The notes under the pieces were generated by a model. That model saw only the letters and a list, made by a program, of their open reading frames with translations. It had not been told where the DNA came from and searched no databases. DNA of 57,665 nucleotides. It comes from a virus (lineage: Duplodnaviria > Caudoviricetes). The translations under genes were made by a program, and so were the position numbers. Within the stretch, counting starts at the first letter, position 1. Every line of letters begins with the position of its first letter. The stretch covers positions 1 to 57,665 of the IMG/VR virus record IMGVR_UViG_3300042482_000462; one strand, 5' to 3'. Of this stretch, positions 31,456 to 46,473 are shown one piece after another.

Positions 31456-34400
31456 ATGCCAACACTTCAAGAACTGCGCACCAGCATTCCAGAGCTTACC
31501 GGCCTGGACGACAGCACCGCCGTCGAGTACATCCGGCGCATTCACTACCCTGACCGGACAGCCGCAGAAATCGGCTCACGGCTGGGCGTGAAGCCGGCTG
31601 CGCCTTCCGTGAAGCCGCGCAGTATCCCGGCCGCCGTCAACGACACGGTGATCGACTTCAGCAACGCCGTTGCCGGTGGTGTCGCGTCCATCGGCAACTT
31701 TGTGTCGCCCGGCAACCGGGTTTCCAAGTTCATTCAGGACGACATCATCCAGGCTGGCCGGGCAAACCAGTCCGATGCCACCCAGGCAGAAGATGCCCGC
31801 TACGGCCAGGAAATGGAAGCCGCGCAGGGCATTGGCGACGAGGTTGCATCGACGCTTGGCTACGTGGCGCGCAATCCAATCCGGTCGCTGGCCACCGCCG
31901 CAGGTTCGTTCGTCGGCCCTGCTGCCGGCGTCAAGGCCGCACAGTTGGCTGCGCGCGGTGTCGGCGTGTCTGCTGGCGGCGTTGGTGCTGCGCGTGCAGG
32001 CATGGCCGGTGGTGCGTTGACCGGTGCAGCCCTGGCCGGTGGTGACGCTGGCGGAACGGCTTACGACCTGGTGATAAAGGCGGGCGGCACGCCTGAGCAG
32101 GCCACAGAAGCGGCCCGCAACGCATCCGTGATCCCGGCTGCCGTTGGTGGCGTGGGCGGCATGGTTGGTGCCGAACGTCTGCTGGCTGGCGCCAAAGGCT
32201 TCAGCGGCGGCAGGTTGGCGCAGATCGGCAAGACAGCAGCCGTGGAAGGCGGGCAAGAGTTCATTGAGGAAGGCGTCACCCAGTACGAAGGCCGGCGCGC
32301 TGCGATGCCGTATGACCCAACCATCGACCCCATGAAGGGTGTGGCAGGCGCCGCAACGATGGGCGCTGTGTTGGGTGCTGCTACAGGTGGTGCGATGGCA
32401 GCGCTGAAGCCGCAGGTTCCAGAGCTTGGCCCGTTGAGCCGTGCGGCAAACATCGCACCAGACACAACGCCAGAACCGCCGCCGCCACCCGTACCGCTGA
32501 CGCCAGAGCAGGACGCAACGCTCAAGGCCCACGCCAACGCCCGCAACGCCGAGTTGACCGAAAAGGCCAAGGGCACCAAGGACGTGAAAACGCCAGAGGG
32601 CACGATCCCTGGCAAGCAGCCCGAGTTTCTGACGCCTGCAGAGAAGGAAGAACAGGCATTCCTGCAGCAGAACGGCGGCGACACTCAGGCGCTGGCCAAG
32701 GCTTACCCTGGACTGACCGCAGAGCAAGAGCAGCGGGCGCTCGCCAACATTCAAGACTTCGCCAACGAAGGCCAGGACCGGATGCGCACGTTCGCGCCCG
32801 CGCCGCAGCCGGCCCCGCCGCGCCAGCCGGCAACGGTCATCAGGGCAGAGCCTGAGCCGCGCCCACAGCCGCCGTCATTCGAGCCTGACCTGACCACACC
32901 GGCAGCGATCTATGAATCGCTGAACGAGATCGAGCAGCGCAACGACCAGACGCGCCGCATGTATGCGCAGCAGCCAGGTGACCGGCTGAACAAGCAAGGA
33001 AAGCCGTTCAGCAACAAGGCCGCGGCGAAGATCGACCAGAAGAAGGCCGGCGACGGGTTTGCGATTGTTCCAGCCGACAATGGTTTTGTGGTGCGTCCGG
33101 TGGTGGGCGTATCTGCGGAAATTCCGCAGATGGACGCAGACCTGCCGACGCTGAAGAAAGCATGGAGCGACGCCGCAGCGGCCGGGCGCACCGAAGACGC
33201 CAAGGTCATCAACGACCGCATCCTGGCACTGAAGGCTCCAAAAAATGCACCAGAACGGCAAGCACCAGCCCAAGCCGAAGGAACTCAAGCGCCAGCGCCG
33301 GCAGCAGTTGCAGGAGCGGCAGCACCAGAAGCCGATTTTTCCGCAACCGGACAGCCTGCCGTTCAAGCGGGAGGGGTAGATCAGAAAGCGCGCTGGTTGA
33401 AGAACGTCGCCGACAGCAACAGACTGGCAGGCCCCACGGGCGCGCAGATCACCGGTATCGAGAACGGTCGGCTCAACTATGCAGGCGACCCGCGCACAAG
33501 CAAGCAGGGCAAGTCTCTGATAGCCAGCGTGGACGAGGCGCTCAAGGCTGGCGCCACGCTTGCGGAGATTGCGCAGGCAGCGGCACCCAAGCCTACTTCC
33601 ACCAATGCCGCGGCCCCGAAAGTACAACCCCCCGCGCAAGTCGCCGGGGATCGGGTAGCCGCGGCGCCACGTCAAGGACAGGTTGGCGACAAGTTTGCGG
33701 CCGGCGAGGTGGCGCTGACGGCCAGCGGGCGAACCACAACGCCATTTCCAAAGGTCGCGCTGGACACAAATCGCAAGGCAGCGGCCACCATCAAGGCCGT
33801 TGACCAGTGGCTGATGTCGAACGCGCTGGCTGAGGCCGAGTCGCGTGGTGACGATTTCAACGCCAGACAGTTTCGAGCGAATCAGACCAAGCCGCAGCAG
33901 GCAGACAAGGACAGCGCCGAGGAATACCTTTTTGGCGATCAGCCGCGCGTGCTGCCGTCCATTACCAGGCCGCTGATTTCAACCGCTGCCGCCCCACCCC
34001 CACAAGCACAACCCGCTGCCACAGCAGTGGCCCGCCCAAACCGCCGCACCAAGGCCGTGGAAGCCAAGGCAAAAGAGGCAGAGTCCAAGCGCGCGGACTA
34101 CTTCAGCCCAGGAAACATCGTCAAGAGCTTTGGCGGCCACGACGAGGTTTTGTCCTACACGCCCACCGCTGGTGGCGGGTTCACCGTCAAGGTGCATGAG
34201 GTCAAGAAGAACGACCAAGGCGAGTGGGTTCGACTTGGCAAACCGCAGGACGCCCGCCAGCACGCCACCAACCCCGATGCACGCGAACTGGCAGCCGGCC
34301 CCGTTGCAAGGCTGAACCCGCAGCCGGGCGCCGAGGTTAAGTACAGCGAGCCACGGGCAGATGGGGCGCCGTTCCAAAACGCCCCAGGCCGTGGCAGGGC

Positions 34401-37400
34401 ACCAGTACAGGACCAGGCCAATCCCGCTGCACCAGAGCCCGCACCCAAGACGCTGAAAGAGCGCCGGGAGCAGGCCAAGGCAACGCCAGGACGCAACGGC
34501 CCGAACGTCATCATCAACCGCCTGGGCCCGGATGGGCTGACCGACGCCGAGCGCGCGGCAGGCAAGAAGCCGTACAACGACCCGCCAGCGCCACCTGCTG
34601 ACGACAAGACAGTCAAGAGTTTGTTTGGAAACGCCCCTCTCAAGGGAGCATCCGGCAAGATGGATACTCTGGGTGGCTTCTCTGCCGGCGACCGCGTGAA
34701 GGTCAGTGGCCGCACCATCGGCGACTCGACCGTCGAGTTCCTGTTTACGCGCGACATGGCAGGGTTCAGTGAGCCAGGCCAGATGGCGCAAATTGTGAAT
34801 GCCGACGGCAAAAGGCTTCAGGTGCTCACGTCTGAGTTGCAGCGCATCGACGCCGCGCCCGACCTGCAGACCAGCGTGGCAGTGCGGGAACTGGCTGCAC
34901 GCGCAGCGGCATTGCAGACCCCACCGGCCGCGGCACCGGCCCCGAGCGCCAACACCGTCTTCACCGAAGACGCCGCCGCAGCCGCCCGTGCCCGCCTGAA
35001 GGCCAAGCTGGGCCGCCTGAGTTCCGGCATCGACCCCGAGACGATGATGGACGGCATCACGCTGGCCGGCTACCACGTCGAGAAGGGCGCCCGCACGTTT
35101 GCCGCCTACGCCCGCGCGATGGTCGACGACCTGGGCGATGCGGTGAAGCCGTACCTTCAATCCTGGTACATGGCCTTGCGCGCCGACCCGAAGGCAGCCG
35201 CTTTCAAGGCCGACATGGACAAGGCCAGCGCCATTGAAGATCTGACGCCCCCCCAGATTGAAGCGCTGCTGGCGCCAAATGACGCCAACCAGACGGCTCA
35301 AAAAGCGCAGAATGAGGCGCCAAAGGAGAACCCAGATGATTCCCCCACTTCAGGATCTGCGCCTGCGGTCAATCAGCCGCTGGCTCAAAGACCAGAGCCC
35401 AGCACTGCCCGCCGCGGTGCTCAACAGCCGCGCAAGCGAGCTGGACGAGCAGATGATCGAGTCGTTCGAGGAACGGGAGGACTCGTTGAAAGCGCAGCGG
35501 ATGAAGGAGCGCCGCTGGGGGACGGAGGAAAGCCTGACACGGTTCCCGCTGGAGCGGATGGAACTGTGGCAGGAGGTGTGCAGCGAGTTCCTACCCGTGA
35601 CTTCCGACCAGCCGCAGGAGACCTGAAGCGCGAGGGTTCGTGGTTTGCCACGGCTGCACGCAACATTGACCTGATTGAACTGGCTCTGCGCATCCAGGCC
35701 GAAAAGCGAGTGGCCACGCCGCAGGAACAGGCTCAACTTGCGAAGTACGTGGGCTTTGGCGCCAGCGAGATCAGGAACAACCTGTTCCCGGTGCCGTCGC
35801 AGTGGGCCCGCCAGCAAGACCCCAAGCGCCTGATCTGGCCAGACTTGGTGCGTGAAGCGCGCTGGAAGCCGCTGGCCGAGCGCATGGCCGCGTTGCCAGA
35901 AGAGTGGCAGCGTTCGGTGCTTCAGTCAACGCAGTATGCCCACTACACCAGCGAAGGCGTGATCCGTTCCGTGTGGAGCGGCCTGCAGCGCCTGGGCTTT
36001 ACCGGCGGCAAGGTGCTGGAGCCAGGCATGGGCATCGGCAGCTTCAACATGCTGATGCCAGACACGGTGCACGCCACCAGCCGTTACACCGGTGTGGAGT
36101 TCGACGGACCGACCGCGCTGATTGCGCAGATGCTGTCTCCCGACCAGAACATGCTGCACGAGGACTTCATCAAGCGGAAGTTCCCGCGTGACTTCTTCGA
36201 CCTGGCGGTAGGCAACCCGCCTTTCTCGCAGACCAAGATTCTTGGCGACCCGGACTACGAAAAGTTTGGGTTCATGCTTCACGACTTCTTCTTTGCCAAG
36301 AGCCTGGATCGCGTGCGGCCAGGTGGCCTGCTGGTGTTTGTCACCAGCAAGGGCACGATGGACAAGCAAAGCGACAAGGCCCGGAAGTATCTGGCCGAGC
36401 GCGCCGACTTGCTGGGCGCCATCCGGCTGCCGTCTACCGCCTTTGAGGACAACGCCGGCACCAGCGTTGTCACCGACGTTCTGTTCCTGCGCAAGCGCGC
36501 CCCTGGCCAGGAGCCGGCAGGCCCGGCGTGGACCGGCGTGCAAACCATCGACACCAAGGATGGCCCCGTCGTAGTGAACGAGTATTTTGCGGCGAACCCC
36601 GGTATGGTGCTGGGCGAGCAGCGCATCAACGGCAACGTGGACGACTTCGGCCGGCGCATCAACAGCAATGGCATGGGCGGCGCCAAGTACACGGTGGTGA
36701 GCTACGACTCCACGCCTGAGCAACTGGACGAGCGTTTTGCCAAAGCCATCGAAAGCCTGCCAGAAAACGTGTATTCGCCCCTGAGCGCCAACAGCGAGCA
36801 GGTGAAGCGCGAAACGGCCAAGGTGGACTTTGACCCGTCGATCAAGCGCGAGGGTGTTGTGTACCTTGGCGCCGACGGCAAGCTGCGCCGCGTGCAGAGC
36901 GGTGTTGGCGTGGCCCTGGCCGATGGCATGAAGTTGTCGGCCAAAGACGAAGCCTGGTTCAAGGGGTACGTGGGTGTGCGCGACATGGTGCAGGCCGCAC
37001 GGCTTGCCCAGGTGCAGGACGGCGATTGGGAGAAGGCGCTGAAGGCGCTAAACAAGGCTTACGACGCATTCCGCAAAGAACACGGCCCAATCAACGACTT
37101 CCGCACGCAGACCCGCCGCGGCACCGACGAAGAAGGCAACGAGGTCACGACCGAGATCCGCATCTTCAAGAACCGGCGCCTGTTCCGCGAAGACTACGAC
37201 AGCGCCGTCATGACGCAACTGGAGGTCATCAACGAAACCGGCGAGATCATCAAAGCCCCGTTCCTGCTTGGCCGCACCATCGGCAAGCCTGTGGTGCGCG
37301 AGGTCAAGACCGTGGGTGACGCGCTGGCCGTGTCGTTGGATGAAACCGGTCGGCTGGACCTGGACGACATTGCGCGCCGCATGAGCTTGAGGCGCGACGA

Positions 37401-40400
37401 AGTGGTCGACGCGCTGGGCACTCAGATCTACAAGGCCCCTGGCGGCCAGTGGCAACTGTCGGACGAGTACCTGTCCGGTGACGTGGTGGCCAAACTTGAG
37501 GAAGCCGAGCTTGCCGCGCGCCTTGACCCAAGCCTCGCGCGCAACGTGCAAGCTCTGAAGGAAGTTCAACCCGAGAAACTTGGCCCGTCGCAAATCAGCG
37601 TGAAGGCCGGCGCATCATGGGTTCCTGCGGAGTACGTCAATGACTTTGCCAAGGAAATCGGCGCAGGCGCTGTGACGTTCGATTCCAAGACCGAATCTTG
37701 GCAAGTCCAGGGCGGCAACGAGCGCAGCGCGCGCCGGGCTGGCGCTGAGTACGGCACCGCCGATCGTTCGCCTTCGGAGTTGCTGGAGTCTGTGCTGAAC
37801 AGCCAGAGCATCACGATCAAGCGCACCGATGCCGACAAGAAGGTTTACACCGACGCGGCGGCAACCACGGCGGCCAACGAAATGGCACGCAAGATCAAGG
37901 AGAAGTTCAAGGGGTGGGTGTGGACTGACGCCGACCGCGCAAGCAACCTGGTGGAGATCTACAACAAGCGCTTCAACAACATCGCGCCGCGCCGTTTCGA
38001 CGGCTCGCACATGACGCTGCCTGGGGTGAGCCTGCGGTTTAGCCTGCATCCGCACCAGAAGCGCGCGATCTGGCGCCAGGTGCAGACCGGCGACACCTAC
38101 CTTGCGCACGCGGTGGGCGCCGGCAAGACCATCGAAATGATTGCCGGCGGCATGGAGCAAAAGCGCCTTGGGCTCATCAGCAAGCCCATGTACGCCGTGC
38201 CAAACCACATGCTGGAGCAGTTCGCCAACGAGTTCATGGAGCTCTACCCGCTGGCCAACATCATGGTGGCCGACGACGAAAACTTCTCAGCCGAGCGCCG
38301 CAAGGCTTTTGTGGCCGCCGCCACCTTGAACGCCCCTGACGCCATTGTCATCACTCACAGCGCGTTTGAGCGCATTGGTGTGAAGGAGGAAACCGTCGCT
38401 CCCATCCGCGATGAGATTCTGGACGACCTTCAAACCGAACTGGAGGACAGCGACAAAGGCGACCGCGTGCGCCGGGCGCAGCTGCAGCAGCAGATCGAGG
38501 CTGTGGAACAGCGGTTTGACAGCATCGTCGGTGCCGGCAAGAAGGACTCGACCATCAAGTTCGAGGACATCGGCGCCGATTTTGTCTACGTGGATGAGGC
38601 CCACGCTTTCCGCAAGCTGGACTTCACGACGAACCAGAAGATCAAGGGCATTGACCCCAACGGGTCACGCAGGGCCCTGGATATGTACGTCAAGACCCGC
38701 TACCTGGGCCGCAAGAAGCCAGGTCGCGCAATGGTGTTTGCGTCTGGCACGCCGGTGACCAACACCATGGGCGAGCTTTACACCATCATGCGGTTCTTCT
38801 CACCCCAAGAGTTGAGCCGGGGTGGCATTGCAACCTTCGACGCTTGGGCGCGGCAGTTCGGCGAGGCAGTGCCTGCACTGGAAGCCAACGCCGCCGGCCG
38901 GTACGAGGTAGTGGAGCGCTTCGCCAAGTTTGACAACGTGCCCGAACTGATGTCACGAGTGCGGCAGTTCATGGACGTGCTGACGTCGGAACACCTGGGC
39001 GCCTTGGTCAAGCGGCCAGACATTGAGGGCGGCAAGCCTGACCTTATCACGGTAGATCCTACCGAGGCCCTGAAGAAGTACATGAAGGGCGTGCTTCTGC
39101 CGCGCCTGGAGCAGTCGCGCAAGTGGAAGCCGACGAAAGATCAGCCGTTCAACCCCGACCCCGTGATCGCCATCACCAGTGACGGCCGTTTTGCCGCGCT
39201 GGACCCGCGTTTTGTTGGGGAAAAGATCGACGAGAACGCAACCCCGACCAAGCTCACGCGCATGGCCGACGAGGTGGCGCAGATCTACAAGGCCAGCGCT
39301 GGCAACGAATACTTGGACAAGCAGGGCAAGCCAGAGCCTGTCAAGGGCAGCACGCAGATCGTGTTCTACAACCTGGGCTTTGGGGCGCAGTCGATGCAGA
39401 ACCGCGGCTTCGATGCGCGCGGCACTCTGACCAAGCGTCTGGTGGCGCAGGGCGTGAAGCGCGACCACATCCTGTGGTTTGATGATGCGGACACCGACTC
39501 CAAGAAGGAGACGATGTTCAAGGCCATGCGCAATGGCCAGGCCCGTGTGCTGATTGGCAGCGCCAAGAAGATGGGCACTGGTGTGAACGTGCAGAAACGC
39601 CTGCTGGCTCTGCACTACTTCGACCCGCCCTGGTATCCCAGCGACGTGGAGCAGCCGCACGGCCGCATCATCCGCCAGGGCAACCAAAACACACTGGCCA
39701 CCATCAAGTGGTACGCCACCAAGGGCACCTACGACAGCACCATGTGGCAGATGGTGGCACGCAAGCAGCGCTTTATCGACCAAGCGTTCAGCGGCGACAA
39801 GTCGCTGCGCACGATGGAGGACATGAGCGAAGCCAGCATGTTCGAGCAGGCCGCCGCGGTGGCCAGCGGAGACCCGAGGGCTTTGCAGTTGGCCGGGTTG
39901 CGCCAAGACGTGGAGCGACTGGAACGGCTGCAGGCGGCGCACGCCAGCGAGCAGATTGCACTGCGCAGCGGCCTGCGCAGTGCCGAGTGGAACATTGAGA
40001 GCTACGCCAAGCGGGTGAAGACCTACGGCGACGCATTCAAGGCCATCGGCGGCGGGTACTACAGCTTCAGCAGTGCAACGGTTGGCGGCAAGACATTCGA
40101 CAAGGTAGGTGAGTTCGGCCAGGCGCTGAAGGATGCTTTCAACCAGAAGGCCGCCGATGCAGTCATGGAACCGGGCACCAAGACGCGCGCCCTTGCCACG
40201 CTGCCATCTGGCATCACAGTCCGCATGGAGGCCAACGAAGACCGCGAAGGCAAGCCAACCGGCGAACATGAACTGGTGCTGCGTGCCGGGTCCGTCGACA
40301 TTCAGTTGACCGGCTACGCTGCCGCGCTGGGCGAGAAGGTTGACGCCGTGGGCCTTGGCCGGCGCGTCATCAACGCCGTCAACGGCATCGAGGCAGACTT

Positions 40401-43400
40401 GAACCGCGCCAAGTCGTCGCTGGCCAACGAGGAAACCGACGCGACGCGGCTGCGCAAGAAACTGGGCGCGCCTTTTGAGTATCAACAAGAACTGGCCGAG
40501 AAGATCGGCGACCTGAAGCGCCTGGAAGAAGAACTTCGCGCCGAAGGAGAGGCAGAAGCCCGCGCCGCGGCGGCAGAGGTGGTGATTGACGCCACGGGCG
40601 CCAGTGAAGCAGGACAGCCGCGCGCCGACGGCGCCGCGCAGTTCAGCCGCGCCACCGGCCAGTCCACCACCCCCGCCCAGCTTCGCACCGCCCTTGAAAC
40701 CGAGTTCAGCCCTGAAACCATCGGCGCCCTTGAGCGCGCTGGCCTGCTGACCATTGGCGACCGCCCGACCGCTGGCATGCCTTCAGACGCAGCTGGTGTG
40801 AGCCAGGGCGGCAGGATTGGCCTGTTCGCCGGCAACACCCGGCCGGGCTCGACAGCCGTCGCGTACCACGAAGCCCTTCACGCCACGCTCAAGACCAGCA
40901 TCGGCGAGCAGACCTACGCTGCGCTGCTGGACCGCCTGGCGGCCATCGACAGCAAGGCCATGGCCGGTGGGGCTACGCAGAAGTTCTTTGCCCAGGCGCG
41001 GGGTCGCATCCCTGCCGACCTGACGGGCACTGAGCGGCTGGAAGAACTTGCCGCGTACTCGGTCGAGGCCGTGCAAGCCGAACGCGAAGGCACGCCGCTG
41101 GCCATCAAGCGCTGGGTGAGCGACTTCCTGGCAGCGCTGCGCGCGGGGCTTTCCAAGGCACTGCAAGCGGCAGGTGTGGGCCTGCGCATCCGGGCGCGGC
41201 TGCTGGCCGACCCGGCAACGCTGCGGAAGATCGCGCGCGACGGGCTGCAGGCAATGGCAAGGCAGGGGATGCAGGGCGATGCTGCAATGGCGTTCAGCCA
41301 GCCAGCAGCCGGCCCGAAGTGGTACAGCGCACTGAAGCAGTCCATCGCAGGCCTGAGCATGGGCGCAGCGCCGGCCCAGGGTTGGAAGGACAGTATCAAG
41401 GGGCTGGTGGCCAAGGGCGCCGTGAAAGCTGATGAAATCGAATGGACCGGCATCAACGAGTTCTTGGACCTGCAGCAAGGCAAGGTCACCAAGGCCCAAG
41501 TGATGGCATTCATGGATGCCAACGGGGTGCAGGTAACCGAGACGGTGCTGTCTGACGAAGTAGCGCGTTCGCTGCCCGCTGGTTGGCAGGTTCTGCGCGG
41601 CTACGACGACACGTTCACTGTTTCTGATGGCGACGGCAACATCATGGGAGAGGGCGAAACGGCGGCAGAAGCCGTGGCCAACGCGCAAGACGAAGACGCA
41701 GCGGCGGACACGCCGTCAATGACCAAGTACGGCCGGTACACCCTGCCTGGCGGCACCAACTACCGCGAGGTGCTGCTGACGCTGCCCACCAAGTCGTCGG
41801 GAAAGTATTGGGCCGAAGACGTAGGCACTGTTCCCGGGGTCCAGAACTGGATGGTCGCATCAACGCGCGAATCAGATGGGGAAACCGTGTATCGCGGCAA
41901 GAGCCACGGTTCACGCCAATCAGCAGAGCGAGCCATTGCGGAACTTGAAGGCGCGAAGAACTACAAGTCCAGCCACTGGGACCAGCCCAACGTCCTGGCC
42001 CACATCCGCCTGAACGACCGCACGGATGCAGACGGCAACCGGGTGCTGTTTGTGGAAGAGGCCCAATCCGACTGGGGCCAGGATGGCAAGAAGAAGGGGT
42101 TTGCCAACCCTTCAATGAAGCCGCTCACCAACAAGGAGTACCAGGCCTATCTCGACGGCCTGGTGGATGAGTACGCAGACAAGTTTGCCAAAGAGGCTGG
42201 CAGCCGTAGGGATGCTGAACGCAACGCCATCAACATGCCTATGCGTGCACTCGCTGAGGCACTTGGCAAGGCCGACGAGCTCGCCACCATGAGGGCTCGC
42301 CGACAAATGGACATTGATGGCGTGGCCGCCGTCCCGCTTGCCCCATTCGTTGGCGCCACCGACAAGTGGCTCACACTGGCCCTGAAGCGCGTCATCAAGA
42401 TGGCCGTCGATGGCAGCTACGACAAGGTGGCCTTTGTCACGGGCGAGCAAAGCGCGGATCGGTATGACCTGAGCAAGCAGGTGGACTCCATCCGCATCAC
42501 ACGAGTGGGCGCCGATGAGTTTGATGTGGCCGCCGCCGTGAAGGGTGGCGGGCGGGGCATCAGCGAAACCGGCCTGTCACTTGCACGGCTTGAAGAAACT
42601 GTCGGCAAGGAGTTGGCAAAGCGCGGCGCTGCATTGCCCGAGGGCGTCGGCGAAACCTACACCGACACGGACCTGAAAGTCGGCGGCGAAGGCATGAAAG
42701 CCTTCTATGACCAGATCGTCCCTGCCGCTACCAAGGCCCTGCTGAAGAAGCTGGGCGGCGGGCAGATGGAGGCTGTACCAATCGCGGCAGTTGAACAAGG
42801 GTTGCGAGTCAAGCCGGTTGACAGCCCGTTTGGCAAATTTGTTCTTGTCGATGGAAGCGGCAAAGAAGTAGGACTATTTGAAACGGAAGCCGAGGCAAAG
42901 GCTTACATTCGCCAAGCGGCGAAGCCGCAGCCCGGATTCGCCATCACCCCCCAGATGCGCGAGAAGGCCAGCGGTGGAATGCCGCTGTTCAGCCGCACCG
43001 ACCAGACCGCCACCGAAGCATTCAAGCGCTGGTTGTCAGCGTCATTGGCATTCGACGGCCGGCCGGATGCCTTTGCGGCGGAACATGGCGGCGACAGCTT
43101 GGCGAGTGACGCCGCATTCGTGCGCAATTTCTTTGATACGCGAACCGTTCAAGAATTTGGACTTGGCGGCTTCGACATCCCAAGTCGGCGCGTTGTGATG
43201 CGTCGAGTGCTCGGAGTGCTTGAAGATTTCAAGATTCGCCAATCTGTTGTCCAACTTATCCCCGTTGATGTGGTGAACATCCTCGGAGCGAAGCAGCTTA
43301 CGCCCAAGATGCTTTTCAACGACATGGCGATGCTCACGGATTTGCTTGCCGGCAACCGTAATGATTCGATACCCCTTGCGGTCGATGAAACCGCAAAGGT

Positions 43401-46400
43401 TGCTGACGCTGTAGCAGCGGTGACTGCAGAACATCTTGCCGCGAACCCCAAGCTCGGAAGATCGTCTGGTAACGACGGTGCCGCATTGGGCGCAGGGCAT
43501 CGTGATGCTGCCGCCCTTCGCCAAAGCGGAGCAGGCGTGCTTGCAGTAGACATTCCCGCTGGGCGAAACGGCAGACGGGAACCGGAGAACGGGCGTGGAG
43601 CACTGAGCGCAAGAGTAGAGACTTTTCATGACAGGCAACGCATTAAACATGCGATAGCCTACAACGCAGAGTCCGGCACGTCAACAATAAAGACGTTCAA
43701 CCCCGCAAGCCCTGACATCAGATTTAGCCGCACCATGGGCGAGACTCTGCGCGAGGCCGTGCCATCCGCCGCACAAGAGTGGATTGCCGACCGCGCCACC
43801 TCACAGCGCGGGTTCAACCGCCCGTGGCACCGCACCGTGGGCACCCAACTGCACAAGGCCAAGATCAACAAGGACTTCGGCCGGGTGTACTACGCTGCCC
43901 AGGACTTCATGAAGGACGTAAGCCGGATTGCCACCCTGGCATCCGACCGCGCGCCCGACATGCTTCCCCAGATCGAAACCCTGTCTGACATGGCAAAGTT
44001 GGCGCCGAGCCTGGCAAGCCCCGCAGCCTACAAGCAGCGTAAGGCCGACATCAAGGGTGCGAGTGATGCGCTGTTTGACGGCACGCTGCGCTACACCCGA
44101 AACGACGACGGCGAAGCTGTGGCCGTGGATCCTGACAGCAATGAACTGGGCGGGCTGGTGTGGACAGACGCCGAACTGCGCGACCGTGGCATGAGCGAGC
44201 GGGCCATCAAGATGTACCGGCAAAGCCGTGAGGCCATCGACCAGAGCCTGGACAGTATGCTGGCGGCAGACCTGTTCCGCCAAGCCGGTGTACTGAAGCC
44301 TGAAATGCTGGCCGACACCCCGAGCGCGCACCAGGCGCTGCTGGACGGCATGCGCAAGGCCGCTGCGTCCGACAACCCAGCGCAGGTCGGGCAGATGCTG
44401 CGCGAGGCCATTCGCGGACAACTTGAATCGTTGGGCACGGCCCTGGAAGGTCAGCCCAACCAGTACACAGACGGCCTGAAGCAGCGCCAGCAGGAACTGC
44501 GCGACCTGCAGGTGGCCATTGGCGAGAAGATCGAGCGCATCGGTTCGCTGAAGGCATCCGGCTACGCTCCGTTGATGCGTTTCGGACCTTACGCCGTGGA
44601 CGTGATCGACGCTGACGGACAGCGCATTTTCTTTGGCCTGTACGAGGGCCAGGCCGCCGCCAACCAGGCCGCGCGCAACTTCCGTGGCCAAGGACTGCAG
44701 GTCAGCCAAAGCGTGATGCCGCAAAGCGACTTTGAAGCGCTGAAGGGTGTCAGCCCTGAAACGGCCATGCTGTTTGCTGAAATGCTGGGCGTGGAGAAGA
44801 ACGAGGCCATGCAGACGTGGTTGAAGAACGCGGTGGCCGAGCAGTCGGCCCTGAAGCGCCACATCCGCCGCAAGGGCATTGAAGGGTTTGACGAGGACGG
44901 CAGCCGCGTGCTGGCCGCTTTTGTGACCAGCAACGCCCGCGCCGCATCGCGCGCCCTGCACGCTACCCGCATGGCTGACGCTGTGGAGAACGTGCGCCAG
45001 GGTGACGTGAAGGACGAGGCCCGCGCGCTGGTTGAGTACATCAACAACCCCAAGGAAGAAGCGCAGGCCATCCGTTCGCTGCTGTTCGTGCAGTACATCG
45101 GCGGCAGCGTGGCGTCAGCGCTGGTGAACCTGACCCAGACCCTGGTGCAGACGCTGCCCTACCTGAGCCAGTACGGCGGGGCTGTGAAAGCCGGGCAGCG
45201 CCTTTCCGGGGCTATGAAACTGGCCCTGGCCGACAAGATCACAGACACGGAACTGTCCGACGCTGTGAAGCGCGCCGAGAAGGATGGCGTCATCAAGCCG
45301 CAGGAAGTTTTCCAGCTGCAGGCCGAGGCCAGCCGCAGCCTGGGGTCCAACCTGTACGTGCGATCACTGCTTTCGGCCTGGGGATCAATGTTCCAGATGG
45401 CCGAGGTGTTCAACCGCCGCGTGGCCTTCATCGGCGCCTACAACACCGCCAAGGAACAGGGGATTGCGGACCCGTTCGCTTTCGCGGAAAACGCGGTGGA
45501 TGAAACGCAGTCCGTGTTCAACAAGGGCAACCGGCCAAACTGGAGCCGCGGCGCCGTGGGTGCCACCTTGTTCACCTTCAAGACCTTCACCATCCAGTAC
45601 GTGGAATTCCTGAAGCGCCTTTCGACCGCTGGCGAGCCTGGCTCACCTGAGCGCAAGCAGGGTCAGCGCGCCGCTGCCGTGGCGCTGATGATGCTGATGA
45701 TCCTGTCGGGCATGAAAGGCATTCCGTTTGCTGATGATGCAGAGGATTTGGTTGACACCGTGGCGCAGGCCCTGGGCTACAACTGGGTGACCGATGCGCA
45801 GCGCGACCGCTGGCTGGACAAGATGCTGGGCGAAACCATGTCAGACATCGTGCAGCATGGCCTGAGCGGCGTGCCCGGTGTGCCGTTCGACGTGTCGCAG
45901 CGCCTTGGCATGGCAAACCTGCTGCCCGGCACCGGGCTGCTGAAGCAGTCGGAAACCAACAAGCAGAACCAGGTGCTGGAAGTATTTGGCGTGGCCGGGT
46001 CAGCGGTAAAGGATGCCACCCAAGGCCAGGTGCTTCCGTTGGCCATCCGCAACCTGATGAAAGGCCTGGACACCTACCAGACCGGCATGTACCGCGACAG
46101 CAGGGGGCGCAACGTGGTTGAGTCTGACGGCTTGGGCGCGGCATTGAAGGCCATAGGCCTGCAGCCTTCGCGGGTGGCCAGCGCCCAACGCGACATTGGC
46201 CGGCAGATCGAGGAACGCAACCTGTACAGTGCGGTGAAGGAAGAAATCACCGACGCCATGGCGCAAGCCCGCTTCGACAAAGACGCAAACGCCGCCAAAC
46301 AGGCTGCTGCTGCGCTGAATAAGTGGAACGACACCAACCCCGAGGCGCCCATCATCATCAAGTCCCACACCATTCAGGCCCGCGTGCGGCAGATGATGCG

Positions 46401-46473
46401 CAGCAAGGCAGAGCGCACCATTGCCAACGCGCCCCGGCCGCTGCGGGCCGCCACGGCAGAGGCCTTGCAGTGA
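31456..46473 (+). CDS. Giant DarB-like polyvalent virion protein: N6-adenine MTase + SNF2 helicase + zincin metallopeptidase + PLxRFG domain
   Basis: EPGMGIG (36019), NPPF (36214), AHAVGAGKT (38104), DEAH (38593), HEALH (40867), PLMRFG (44569); 5005 aa. Confidence 0.93.
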   Translation: MPTLQELRTSIPELTGLDDSTAVEYIRRIHYPDRTAAEIGSRLGVKPAAPSVKPRSIPAAVNDTVIDFSNAVAGGVASIGNFVSPGNRVSKFIQDDIIQAGRANQSDATQAEDARYGQEMEAAQGIGDEVASTLGYVARNPIRSLATAAGSFVGPAAGVKAAQLAARGVGVSAGGVGAARAGMAGGALTGAALAGGDAGGTAYDLVIKAGGTPEQATEAARNASVIPAAVGGVGGMVGAERLLAGAKGFSGGRLAQIGKTAAVEGGQEFIEEGVTQYEGRRAAMPYDPTIDPMKGVAGAATMGAVLGAATGGAMAALKPQVPELGPLSRAANIAPDTTPEPPPPPVPLTPEQDATLKAHANARNAELTEKAKGTKDVKTPEGTIPGKQPEFLTPAEKEEQAFLQQNGGDTQALAKAYPGLTAEQEQRALANIQDFANEGQDRMRTFAPAPQPAPPRQPATVIRAEPEPRPQPPSFEPDLTTPAAIYESLNEIEQRNDQTRRMYAQQPGDRLNKQGKPFSNKAAAKIDQKKAGDGFAIVPADNGFVVRPVVGVSAEIPQMDADLPTLKKAWSDAAAAGRTEDAKVINDRILALKAPKNAPERQAPAQAEGTQAPAPAAVAGAAAPEADFSATGQPAVQAGGVDQKARWLKNVADSNRLAGPTGAQITGIENGRLNYAGDPRTSKQGKSLIASVDEALKAGATLAEIAQAAAPKPTSTNAAAPKVQPPAQVAGDRVAAAPRQGQVGDKFAAGEVALTASGRTTTPFPKVALDTNRKAAATIKAVDQWLMSNALAEAESRGDDFNARQFRANQTKPQQADKDSAEEYLFGDQPRVLPSITRPLISTAAAPPPQAQPAATAVARPNRRTKAVEAKAKEAESKRADYFSPGNIVKSFGGHDEVLSYTPTAGGGFTVKVHEVKKNDQGEWVRLGKPQDARQHATNPDARELAAGPVARLNPQPGAEVKYSEPRADGAPFQNAPGRGRAPVQDQANPAAPEPAPKTLKERREQAKATPGRNGPNVIINRLGPDGLTDAERAAGKKPYNDPPAPPADDKTVKSLFGNAPLKGASGKMDTLGGFSAGDRVKVSGRTIGDSTVEFLFTRDMAGFSEPGQMAQIVNADGKRLQVLTSELQRIDAAPDLQTSVAVRELAARAAALQTPPAAAPAPSANTVFTEDAAAAARARLKAKLGRLSSGIDPETMMDGITLAGYHVEKGARTFAAYARAMVDDLGDAVKPYLQSWYMALRADPKAAAFKADMDKASAIEDLTPPQIEALLAPNDANQTAQKAQNEAPKENPDDSPTSGSAPAVNQPLAQRPEPSTARRGAQQPRKRAGRADDRVVRGTGGLVESAADEGAPLGDGGKPDTVPAGADGTVAGGVQRVPTRDFRPAAGDLKREGSWFATAARNIDLIELALRIQAEKRVATPQEQAQLAKYVGFGASEIRNNLFPVPSQWARQQDPKRLIWPDLVREARWKPLAERMAALPEEWQRSVLQSTQYAHYTSEGVIRSVWSGLQRLGFTGGKVLEPGMGIGSFNMLMPDTVHATSRYTGVEFDGPTALIAQMLSPDQNMLHEDFIKRKFPRDFFDLAVGNPPFSQTKILGDPDYEKFGFMLHDFFFAKSLDRVRPGGLLVFVTSKGTMDKQSDKARKYLAERADLLGAIRLPSTAFEDNAGTSVVTDVLFLRKRAPGQEPAGPAWTGVQTIDTKDGPVVVNEYFAANPGMVLGEQRINGNVDDFGRRINSNGMGGAKYTVVSYDSTPEQLDERFAKAIESLPENVYSPLSANSEQVKRETAKVDFDPSIKREGVVYLGADGKLRRVQSGVGVALADGMKLSAKDEAWFKGYVGVRDMVQAARLAQVQDGDWEKALKALNKAYDAFRKEHGPINDFRTQTRRGTDEEGNEVTTEIRIFKNRRLFREDYDSAVMTQLEVINETGEIIKAPFLLGRTIGKPVVREVKTVGDALAVSLDETGRLDLDDIARRMSLRRDEVVDALGTQIYKAPGGQWQLSDEYLSGDVVAKLEEAELAARLDPSLARNVQALKEVQPEKLGPSQISVKAGASWVPAEYVNDFAKEIGAGAVTFDSKTESWQVQGGNERSARRAGAEYGTADRSPSELLESVLNSQSITIKRTDADKKVYTDAAATTAANEMARKIKEKFKGWVWTDADRASNLVEIYNKRFNNIAPRRFDGSHMTLPGVSLRFSLHPHQKRAIWRQVQTGDTYLAHAVGAGKTIEMIAGGMEQKRLGLISKPMYAVPNHMLEQFANEFMELYPLANIMVADDENFSAERRKAFVAAATLNAPDAIVITHSAFERIGVKEETVAPIRDEILDDLQTELEDSDKGDRVRRAQLQQQIEAVEQRFDSIVGAGKKDSTIKFEDIGADFVYVDEAHAFRKLDFTTNQKIKGIDPNGSRRALDMYVKTRYLGRKKPGRAMVFASGTPVTNTMGELYTIMRFFSPQELSRGGIATFDAWARQFGEAVPALEANAAGRYEVVERFAKFDNVPELMSRVRQFMDVLTSEHLGALVKRPDIEGGKPDLITVDPTEALKKYMKGVLLPRLEQSRKWKPTKDQPFNPDPVIAITSDGRFAALDPRFVGEKIDENATPTKLTRMADEVAQIYKASAGNEYLDKQGKPEPVKGSTQIVFYNLGFGAQSMQNRGFDARGTLTKRLVAQGVKRDHILWFDDADTDSKKETMFKAMRNGQARVLIGSAKKMGTGVNVQKRLLALHYFDPPWYPSDVEQPHGRIIRQGNQNTLATIKWYATKGTYDSTMWQMVARKQRFIDQAFSGDKSLRTMEDMSEASMFEQAAAVASGDPRALQLAGLRQDVERLERLQAAHASEQIALRSGLRSAEWNIESYAKRVKTYGDAFKAIGGGYYSFSSATVGGKTFDKVGEFGQALKDAFNQKAADAVMEPGTKTRALATLPSGITVRMEANEDREGKPTGEHELVLRAGSVDIQLTGYAAALGEKVDAVGLGRRVINAVNGIEADLNRAKSSLANEETDATRLRKKLGAPFEYQQELAEKIGDLKRLEEELRAEGEAEARAAAAEVVIDATGASEAGQPRADGAAQFSRATGQSTTPAQLRTALETEFSPETIGALERAGLLTIGDRPTAGMPSDAAGVSQGGRIGLFAGNTRPGSTAVAYHEALHATLKTSIGEQTYAALLDRLAAIDSKAMAGGATQKFFAQARGRIPADLTGTERLEELAAYSVEAVQAEREGTPLAIKRWVSDFLAALRAGLSKALQAAGVGLRIRARLLADPATLRKIARDGLQAMARQGMQGDAAMAFSQPAAGPKWYSALKQSIAGLSMGAAPAQGWKDSIKGLVAKGAVKADEIEWTGINEFLDLQQGKVTKAQVMAFMDANGVQVTETVLSDEVARSLPAGWQVLRGYDDTFTVSDGDGNIMGEGETAAEAVANAQDEDAAADTPSMTKYGRYTLPGGTNYREVLLTLPTKSSGKYWAEDVGTVPGVQNWMVASTRESDGETVYRGKSHGSRQSAERAIAELEGAKNYKSSHWDQPNVLAHIRLNDRTDADGNRVLFVEEAQSDWGQDGKKKGFANPSMKPLTNKEYQAYLDGLVDEYADKFAKEAGSRRDAERNAINMPMRALAEALGKADELATMRARRQMDIDGVAAVPLAPFVGATDKWLTLALKRVIKMAVDGSYDKVAFVTGEQSADRYDLSKQVDSIRITRVGADEFDVAAAVKGGGRGISETGLSLARLEETVGKELAKRGAALPEGVGETYTDTDLKVGGEGMKAFYDQIVPAATKALLKKLGGGQMEAVPIAAVEQGLRVKPVDSPFGKFVLVDGSGKEVGLFETEAEAKAYIRQAAKPQPGFAITPQMREKASGGMPLFSRTDQTATEAFKRWLSASLAFDGRPDAFAAEHGGDSLASDAAFVRNFFDTRTVQEFGLGGFDIPSRRVVMRRVLGVLEDFKIRQSVVQLIPVDVVNILGAKQLTPKMLFNDMAMLTDLLAGNRNDSIPLAVDETAKVADAVAAVTAEHLAANPKLGRSSGNDGAALGAGHRDAAALRQSGAGVLAVDIPAGRNGRREPENGRGALSARVETFHDRQRIKHAIAYNAESGTSTIKTFNPASPDIRFSRTMGETLREAVPSAAQEWIADRATSQRGFNRPWHRTVGTQLHKAKINKDFGRVYYAAQDFMKDVSRIATLASDRAPDMLPQIETLSDMAKLAPSLASPAAYKQRKADIKGASDALFDGTLRYTRNDDGEAVAVDPDSNELGGLVWTDAELRDRGMSERAIKMYRQSREAIDQSLDSMLAADLFRQAGVLKPEMLADTPSAHQALLDGMRKAAASDNPAQVGQMLREAIRGQLESLGTALEGQPNQYTDGLKQRQQELRDLQVAIGEKIERIGSLKASGYAPLMRFGPYAVDVIDADGQRIFFGLYEGQAAANQAARNFRGQGLQVSQSVMPQSDFEALKGVSPETAMLFAEMLGVEKNEAMQTWLKNAVAEQSALKRHIRRKGIEGFDEDGSRVLAAFVTSNARAASRALHATRMADAVENVRQGDVKDEARALVEYINNPKEEAQAIRSLLFVQYIGGSVASALVNLTQTLVQTLPYLSQYGGAVKAGQRLSGAMKLALADKITDTELSDAVKRAEKDGVIKPQEVFQLQAEASRSLGSNLYVRSLLSAWGSMFQMAEVFNRRVAFIGAYNTAKEQGIADPFAFAENAVDETQSVFNKGNRPNWSRGAVGATLFTFKTFTIQYVEFLKRLSTAGEPGSPERKQGQRAAAVALMMLMILSGMKGIPFADDAEDLVDTVAQALGYNWVTDAQRDRWLDKMLGETMSDIVQHGLSGVPGVPFDVSQRLGMANLLPGTGLLKQSETNKQNQVLEVFGVAGSAVKDATQGQVLPLAIRNLMKGLDTYQTGMYRDSRGRNVVESDGLGAALKAIGLQPSRVASAQRDIGRQIEERNLYSAVKEEITDAMAQARFDKDANAAKQAAAALNKWNDTNPEAPIIIKSHTIQARVRQMMRSKAERTIANAPRPLRAATAEALQ
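35336..35626 (+). CDS. Nested +1-frame gene inside the giant ORF, 96-aa helical protein (MIPPLQDLRLRSISRWLKDQSP...)
   Basis: AAGGAG at 35323-35328, 7 nt before the ATG; protein-like composition while the host frame reads as a low-complexity linker. Confidence 0.62.
   Translation: MIPPLQDLRLRSISRWLKDQSPALPAAVLNSRASELDEQMIESFEEREDSLKAQRMKERRWGTEESLTRFPLERMELWQEVCSEFLPVTSDQPQET
43042..43650 (-). CDS. HNH homing endonuclease with two Cys4 zinc fingers and C-terminal HTH, nested antisense in the giant ORF
   Basis: CAQC..YCKHAC, CAQC..FCSHRC, GYRII..EHRHVVEKHLGRKL..EDVHHINGDKLDNRLANLEI..EHSTHH, IKEIAHECGVTRQAV. Confidence 0.93.
   Translation of the reverse strand: MFNALPVMKSLYSCAQCSTPVLRFPSAVSPSGNVYCKHACSALAKGGSITMPCAQCGTVVTRRSSELGVRGKMFCSHRCYSVSNLCGFIDRKGYRIITVAGKQIREHRHVVEKHLGRKLLRSEDVHHINGDKLDNRLANLEIFKHSEHSTHHNAPTWDVEAAKSKFLNGSRIKEIAHECGVTRQAVAAMFRRKGIRPAVECQ
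43656..43684 (-). promoter_or_regulatory. Sigma70-like promoter of the nested HNH gene (TTGACG-17-TAGGCT), likely leaderless mRNA
   Basis: -35 at 43684-43679, -10 at 43661-43656, ATG 5 nt downstream at 43650. Confidence 0.72.

Follow-up and report, generated by a model that had tools for sequence, protein, structure and literature searches.

The locus and its coding composition

The window analysed here, the whole 57,665 bases of the virus record IMGVR_UViG_3300042482_000462 (Duplodnaviria; Caudoviricetes; estimated completeness 84%), carries genes for a helicase, a primase, a portal, a major head protein and internal virion proteins, a gene content of the Bcep22-like podophage type. Its structural module includes a giant open reading frame (ORF) of 5005 amino acids (aa) at 31456-46473 (plus strand), whose product, a DarB-like virion protein, includes a methyltransferase part and an SNF2-type helicase part. 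Wholly inside this giant ORF, in the +1 frame relative to it, lies a small ORF that is very probably a real, selected and separately translated gene, judging from its composition, its conservation and its relatives. It runs on the plus strand (35336-35626) from an ATG at 35336-35338 to a TGA at 35624-35626 and is preceded, across a spacer of 7 nucleotides (nt), by the Shine-Dalgarno (SD)-like sequence AAGGAG at 35323-35328 (plus strand). Start signal and coordinates are as given in the initial annotation, and the translation agrees with it letter for letter. The product, referred to below with its homologues as family A, is an acidic protein of 96 aa and 11 kDa, with an isoelectric point of 4.7 and a charge of -6.5.

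The giant protein aligns by blastp with gp70 of BcepIL02, annotated as a 'DarB-like antirestriction protein' (49% identity over 574 aa), and with the giant coding sequence (CDS) on a Massilia violaceinigra plasmid (67% identity over 459 aa). The first part of its conserved methyltransferase-helicase module is giant aa 1381-2245 (35596-38190, plus strand), as supported by an alignment of 14 sequences with a mean column identity of 79%, by Pfam and by blastp. The Pfam matches to Eco57I (aa 1569-1652, 25.0 bits, cut-off 25.3) and to SNF2-rel_dom (21.9 bits, cut-off 24.9) both fall slightly below threshold, and the Eco57I-type methyltransferase motif region lies at about 36160-36411. The block shared with the Massilia and BcepIL02 proteins begins exactly where the nested ORF ends ('DFRP..GDLKREGSW'), a junction that the initial annotation had already drawn. 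It had also described the giant frame over the overlap as linker-like, and the text there (35335-35595, plus strand) is indeed rich in G, A, R, P and D, with the GC content of the three codon positions inverted to 0.82/0.64/0.43.

By length alone the nested ORF is unremarkable, as the giant gene contains seven +1-frame stop-free runs of 108-126 codons; when codons were drawn from typical parts of the giant gene, the +1 frame stayed open across 97 codons in only 3% of draws. The third-position GC content (GC3) of the giant frame is about 0.8 along the 15-kb gene and drops to 0.43 at 35326-35595, where that of the first position climbs to 0.82. In the +1 frame, the same bases have GC contents of 0.64, 0.43 and 0.82 at the first, second and third positions, which is the usual gene pattern of this genome. 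This flip is the sharpest within the giant gene, and the nested ORF is the sole same-strand ORF within it to pass the compositional filter that real genes pass. The flip recurs in all 15 homologous loci, with a nested-frame GC3 of 0.76-0.91 and a second-position GC content of 0.38-0.49.

The pattern AAGGAG-N5-9-ATG occurs five times on the two strands of the window, against 1.0 +/- 1.0 in triplet-block shuffles. The other four sites (20361 and 29995, and 2661 and 2108 on the minus strand) are all starts of ORFs with coding composition, the major head gene included. At the sequence level the nested gene thus has an initiation signal of its own, the motif marking a gene start in all five of its occurrences in the window.

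Conservation of the small protein and its frame

Homologues of the small protein were sought, as the initial annotation had proposed, and the +1 frame was inspected for stops in relatives. A sequence search returned 36 called proteins among 38 candidates (95-108 aa, 40-87% identity), and an exhaustive HMMER scan returned 48 cluster representatives at E<=1e-3; 37 of these measure 90-107 aa, most aligned from residue 1. The family alignment has 15 invariant residues, M1, I2, P3 and P4 among them, and can be summarized by the motif string MIPPLQ..RLRSISRWLKD..LDEQMIEAFE..WGTEE..LWQEV..EFLP. Forty-two loci were fetched, one of them partial and three left unparsed on the other strand; the remaining 38 yielded 27 distinct small-protein sequences. 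All 27 start with ATG and 26 with MIPP, and a purine-rich SD-like run lies 5-16 nt upstream in 25 of them under a loose pattern. By state, 21 are nested in a giant frame open on both sides, five are free-standing and one runs off its contig; a further nested copy (L040), from a locus left out of the 38-locus parse, brings the nested copies to 22, mostly 92-101 aa long, with one of 122. Start and stop are thus conserved in diverged relatives, as is expected of an overlapping gene.

In a tblastn search of 14 loci, the nested ORF was matched without a stop over 80% or more of its length in 11, and a stop is absent from 13 of the 14 matches. The controls were the 24 remaining alternative-frame runs of 90 codons or longer within the giant gene, the best of which reached 5 of the 14 loci. 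These homologous loci are mutually related, so that locus counts here and elsewhere are not counts of independent events.

Over the overlap, the nested frame has an amino-acid identity of 0.52, compared with 0.43 for the giant frame and 0.375 for the third, so that the comparison of the two coding frames, another of the proposed checks, comes out in favour of the small one. Nine closer pairs show 106 changes that alter the giant protein and leave the nested one as it is, and 54 with the opposite effect, a ratio of 1.96 where 0.74 is expected; the asymmetry has the same direction in all nine pairs, which are not independent of one another. These substitution classes, together with the GC signature in 15 of 15 loci, are those of a nested frame under purifying selection. 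The third position of the giant frame is the least variable of the overlap (0.317) and the most variable of the flanking methylase block (0.412 vs 0.184 and 0.136).

When 401 genomes from the order to which one carrier belongs were searched for family A, that carrier alone was positive, so that the family is rare in chromosomes. A tblastn search of 50,697 GenBank phage records gave no match. One Oxalobacteraceae genome (G004) holds three diverged nested copies, each within a giant frame, on contigs C30, C46 and C154 (loci L040, L042/L005 and L043/L006), and probably carries several related elements.

Structure prediction, also proposed initially, gave a confident model: AlphaFold2 with the family alignment places three helices at residues 6-20, 26-57 and 64-85, with a predicted local distance difference test score (pLDDT) of 89.3 and a predicted template modelling score of 0.76.

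Two further ORFs inside the giant gene deserve mention. An antisense ORF on the minus strand at 43045-43680, with 212 stop-free codons, encodes an HNH endonuclease (Pfam HNH_3, 42.9 bits, cut-off 24.8); it coincides with a dip in giant-frame third-position GC content at 43066-43785, and the giant frame remains open across it, with a translation rich in R, G and A. The fetched loci, of which few span that region, yielded no counterpart. The longest alternative-frame ORF of the giant gene, at 32982-33800 in the +2 frame (273 stop-free codons, including ORF 33162-33803), was rejected as a gene, being devoid of coding composition (0.66/0.70/0.55 GC at positions one to three) and looking spurious; it has a stop-free match of at least 80% cover in one of the 14 loci, only two of which span the region.

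The same slot in other phages and plasmids

A second nested ORF, of a different family, occupies the same slot in Burkholderia and Ralstonia phages. In BcepIL02 a 107-aa ORF in the +1 frame (L002:1829-2152) follows AAGGAGG at 9 nt from its ATG, with a GC flip that is even sharper, and 10 Lessievirus records retain it at 76-100% identity. Ralstonia phage Eline carries a clear homologue, likewise of 107 aa and with AGGAGG (L044:1912-2235). This family B, found in the Lessievirus phages Bcep22, BcepIL02, BcepMigl, DC1, JC1 and CSP3 and in the Cimandefvirus Eline, resembles family A in lying within the last 100 or so codons before the methyltransferase block, in its +1 frame, its own SD sequence, its GC-position flip and its helical-looking product. 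In sequence, however, the two share no detectable similarity (hhalign probability 0.1%) and look unrelated. Family B is unannotated in both of the feature tables fetched, those of BcepIL02 and Eline, and for the other Lessievirus records the search table gives only the giant CDS under the family B match.

Both families invite comparison with TnpV (PF14198), known from Tn4451-type elements and Actinomycetota plasmids, which the initial annotation had loosely invoked. Like family A, TnpV is predicted to have a three-helix core of about 90 residues; in the AlphaFold model of a bona fide TnpV, a layout of about 88 residues, the helices lie at 3-25, 30-53 and 62-84, close in arrangement to those of the nested product. 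The structure 2apl_A is a low-Z neighbour of either model (Z 5.8 and 5.6), three-helix bundles being common. In sequence, the window protein has no PF14198 match, and five of 37 family A members score 14.2-19.5 bits in a single register, short of the cut-off of 27. In a Protein Atlas search family A has a neighbour at 0.83, a cluster 17% of which carries the TnpV family. Profile alignments between family A and TnpV are colinear across 57-77 columns, with hidden Markov model matches at the level of reversed decoys, and the invariant motifs MIPP, RLRSI.RW and WGT are absent from TnpV. For family B, Pfam gives 21.4 bits to TnpV over residues 14-88 and hhalign P values of 1e-4 to 1.8e-4; by these profile scores family B is closer to TnpV than family A is. 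A search of 401 Pseudomonadota genomes gave no PF14198 match above the cut-off, and TnpV sequences were therefore drawn from Actinomycetota plasmids.

TnpV matches were found in 51 plasmid records, eight of which were inspected. In seven of the eight, a TnpV or TnpV-like gene lies directly before a large helicase gene or nested in its +1 frame; the exception is a Thermobifida plasmid, with no helicase after the gene. Five of the eight have it directly 5' of a helicase-related, SNF2 or UvrD gene. On pVMKU of Micromonospora maris a true TnpV (28.4 bits, cut-off 27) stands immediately 5' of a DarB-like methylase-helicase gene, and on the Streptomyces sp. NBC_00470 plasmid NZ_CP107890.1 (L056) a TnpV-like gene of 89 aa directly precedes a 26,241-nt gene for an 8746-aa 'UvrD-helicase domain-containing protein'. 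In the other two plasmids the gene falls within an annotated helicase CDS, in the +1 frame. One is the Micromonospora sp. NBC_00821 plasmid NZ_CP108881.1, where a 139-aa TnpV with GGAGG upstream (L051:3001-3420) is nested in a 'helicase' CDS that begins 418 codons upstream of it, and where the GC flip indicates true dual coding; the other is pTC2, where the CDS extends upstream by just 76 nt, perhaps through an artefact of annotation. Family A thus has its place in common with TnpV, whether right in front of a large helicase gene or within it, and, as read from these gene orders, a small gene for a three-helix protein that precedes a big helicase gene or is swallowed by it recurs across phyla. 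Kinship between family A and TnpV is accordingly a matter of balance: the shared slot and the sub-threshold matches speak for a distant relationship, no member of family A scores high enough for the Pfam family itself, and the two possibilities are held about equal.

Free-standing homologues of family A occur where no giant gene is nearby, tblastn matches of the giant protein at these loci being limited to the overlap stretch (aa 1277-1447). They share the MIPP start and have an in-frame stop 11-18 codons upstream. In Accumulibacter-type loci the free-standing version is 172-175 aa long with a conserved C-terminal extension (L025:3001-3528, also L003 and L023) and lies between a small terminase gene and a regulator gene, beside a helicase and a DUF7146-Toprim primase. 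The L025-type locus, which also has transposase genes and belongs to a contig of 532 kb, resembles a phage satellite or the remains of a prophage. Another copy lies upstream of NucS-like and HamA genes. A copy of 138 aa with a Gly-Leu repeat at its end (L034:3001-3417) stands between an integrase and a UvrD helicase and is followed by a frame-shifted scrap similar to the methylase N-terminus; this locus is possibly the relic of a broken giant gene.

Interpretation and alternative explanations

Taken together, these observations make it probable that the small ORF is a genuine nested +1 gene, started internally, and that the giant ORF reads through it as linker, its product being perhaps an accessory partner of the methyltransferase-helicase module. 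Most likely, ribosomes would start on the giant messenger RNA at the internal SD sequence and ATG and so make a separate, acidic, 96-aa three-helix protein. Selection over the overlap acts mainly on this protein, the giant protein reading the same bases as a low-complexity linker. Substitutions and composition place the constraint on the small gene, across which the giant ORF runs. The initial annotation had proposed a real overprinted gene; the gene itself is borne out by composition, conservation, substitutions, fold confidence and free-standing homologues, and the direction implied by the term is probably the reverse, with the small gene the older of the two and the giant ORF having run through it, contrary to classic overprinting. 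This order is suggested by the homologues that stand alone and by the low cost of keeping the giant frame open over the small gene: shuffling the codon order of the nested gene leaves the giant frame without a stop in 23% of cases and the third frame in 1%. Stop codons all begin with T, and the first codon position of the giant frame is the GC-rich third position of the small gene, so that stops seldom arise; for the same reason the -1 frame of GC3-rich genes is almost stop-free in general. The small gene may once have stood directly 5' of a methyltransferase-helicase gene, a place that TnpV occupies to this day in Actinomycetota plasmids, and the ORF of an upstream virion protein would then have been fused to the helicase ORF via the -1 frame of the small gene.

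As for function, the product may serve the DarB-like antirestriction module as an adaptor or regulator, or in its assembly, and would be produced in concert with it. That the small protein works with the helicase module is put forward tentatively, at a confidence just short of even. A partnership of this kind was among the suggestions of the initial annotation, and what now points to it is the conserved gene position across phyla and a complex prediction. The latter, for the small protein with giant aa 1381-2245, scored 0.50 (runs of 0.50, 0.00 and 0.55), the best of three controls scoring 0.00; contacts agree between runs in at least 0% and the pLDDT of the partner is at least 68. Of 80 solved complexes, 58 clear the pass mark of the method, as do 2 of 110 mismatched pairs, and scores that pass at 0.60 or below came from only 7 of those 80 solved complexes and from both passing mismatches. 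The model thus lends weak support to the pairing.

Several results weigh against this interpretation. A scan of 34800-35900 found neither promoter nor terminator near the nested gene, so that its expression would depend on the transcript of the giant gene, and internal initiation on that messenger is the simplest route; three RNA-type runs shared only 0.05-0.07 of sampled words. The excess of variation at nested third positions is modest (0.435 vs 0.334 and 0.317), both frames constraining the same bases. With respect to function, the profile search envisaged by the initial annotation gave no named family above threshold for the 96-aa product: neither the protein nor family A has a Pfam match above cut-off, PHROGs gives nothing above threshold (best E 5.5e-4, scattered families), and a sequence search of the PDB likewise gives nothing (E 1.4). 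Foldseek against PDB and BFVD returned nothing at E<=1e-3, the VIA wide fold search returned generic helical neighbours only (best Z 6.3), and hhalign between family A and TnpV is not significant (E 0.32 with 37 vs 51 sequences, 0.14 with 77 vs 66). One of the three complex runs scored zero, and free-standing copies that lack a methyltransferase-helicase gene imply that the partner may be something else.

This last point leads to the most serious alternative, that the gene is real and its product independent of the methyltransferase-helicase, acting as an anti-defence or regulatory protein of mobile elements, or as a recombination-directionality or excision helper of the kind once postulated for TnpV. 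A small, acidic, helical product would suit such a role, as would the free-standing copies in satellite-like, integrase-bearing or defence-island contexts that lack the giant gene. Yet a small gene of this kind is again found just ahead of a large helicase gene in Betaproteobacteria phages, with two small-protein families, and in seven of the eight Actinomycetota plasmids inspected, the free-standing L034 copy is itself upstream of a UvrD helicase, and the complex prediction passes, if weakly, where its controls do not; the independent role is considered rather unlikely. A programmed frameshift is a further possibility. SD-like sequences stimulate frameshifting in prfB and dnaX, and AAGGAG could in the same way direct ribosomes out of the giant frame, to give a truncated N-terminal virion protein with a helical end instead of, or beside, the free 96-aa protein. 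In nested loci the +1 frame extends without a stop for 16-130 codons ahead of the ATG, so that stops do not bar entry in this manner, a point that counts against the separate gene. Conservation, however, begins exactly at M1 (MIPP in 26 of 27), the +1 text upstream of it is R-rich and unconserved, the ATG and an SD-like run are kept at the spacing of a start site, and the free-standing homologues share the MIPP start behind their in-frame stops, which together make a frameshift improbable. The notion of a chance ORF or fossil, open by composition or a dead remnant that yields no working protein, can appeal to the seven comparable +1 runs in the same giant gene and to the abundance of spurious ORFs in GC-rich DNA; it is very hard to reconcile with the coding composition, with a start and length conserved across copies down to 40% identity, with the excess of nested-silent changes, with the confident fold and with the free-standing relatives.

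Returning to the nested gene with an internal start, a known arrangement close to it is that of the embedded Rz1-in-Rz spanins, in which a complete gene likewise lies inside another on the same strand, in a different frame and with its own start. Rz1 and Rz differ from the present pair in being two subunits of one lysis complex, Rz1 as a lipoprotein, whereas the nested gene has a 5005-aa virion protein as its host, a host frame that is linker only, and free-standing homologues elsewhere. A further parallel is DarB of phage P1, an antirestriction protein of the methyltransferase-helicase type that needs small accessory virion proteins of the phage, although in P1 these partners have separate genes that do not overlap. 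In passages of the paper on JC1, the P1 system is said to require further components, embedded Rz1-within-Rz genes are described for Lessievirus, and only Rz/Rz1 are named as embedded, with no ORF given inside the DarB-like gene (PMC9144972). No description of an ORF within DarB-like genes, or of TnpV nested in helicase genes, was met in a literature search that did not extend to the founding Bcep22 paper or to supplements. For TnpV, one source offers only an excision function, a guess now decades old (PMC3158075).

Nested genes in phages are already known, and family A is at present without a named family. What the locus adds is a well-supported, fully nested, same-strand dual-coding gene in a double-stranded DNA phage, in which the small gene is constrained and the host frame is linker, together with a simple compositional explanation for dual coding, namely that the -1 frame of GC3-rich genes seldom has stops. 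The nested gene or its counterparts are missing from every annotated record inspected (the Massilia plasmid, BcepIL02 and Eline, and, for TnpV, one Micromonospora plasmid), so that phage and plasmid annotation systematically loses such proteins. The finding also hints that antirestriction proteins of the DarB type, with methyltransferase and helicase parts, have a conserved small partner; these are enzymes whose mechanism is poorly understood. It gives TnpV-like proteins a testable role as well. A broader proposal, on balance unlikely, is that TnpV-like three-helix proteins are general and hitherto unrecognised subunits or regulators of large methyltransferase/SNF2/UvrD-type helicases in phages, plasmids and integrative and conjugative elements. 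On this view, N-terminal helicase extensions would have engulfed their genes repeatedly and independently by way of the stop-poor -1 frame, at least twice among phages, in lineages that differ in their small-protein family, and also in a Micromonospora plasmid. If that were true, such 'gene-swallowing' would be a general route to dual coding, missed each time by standard annotation.

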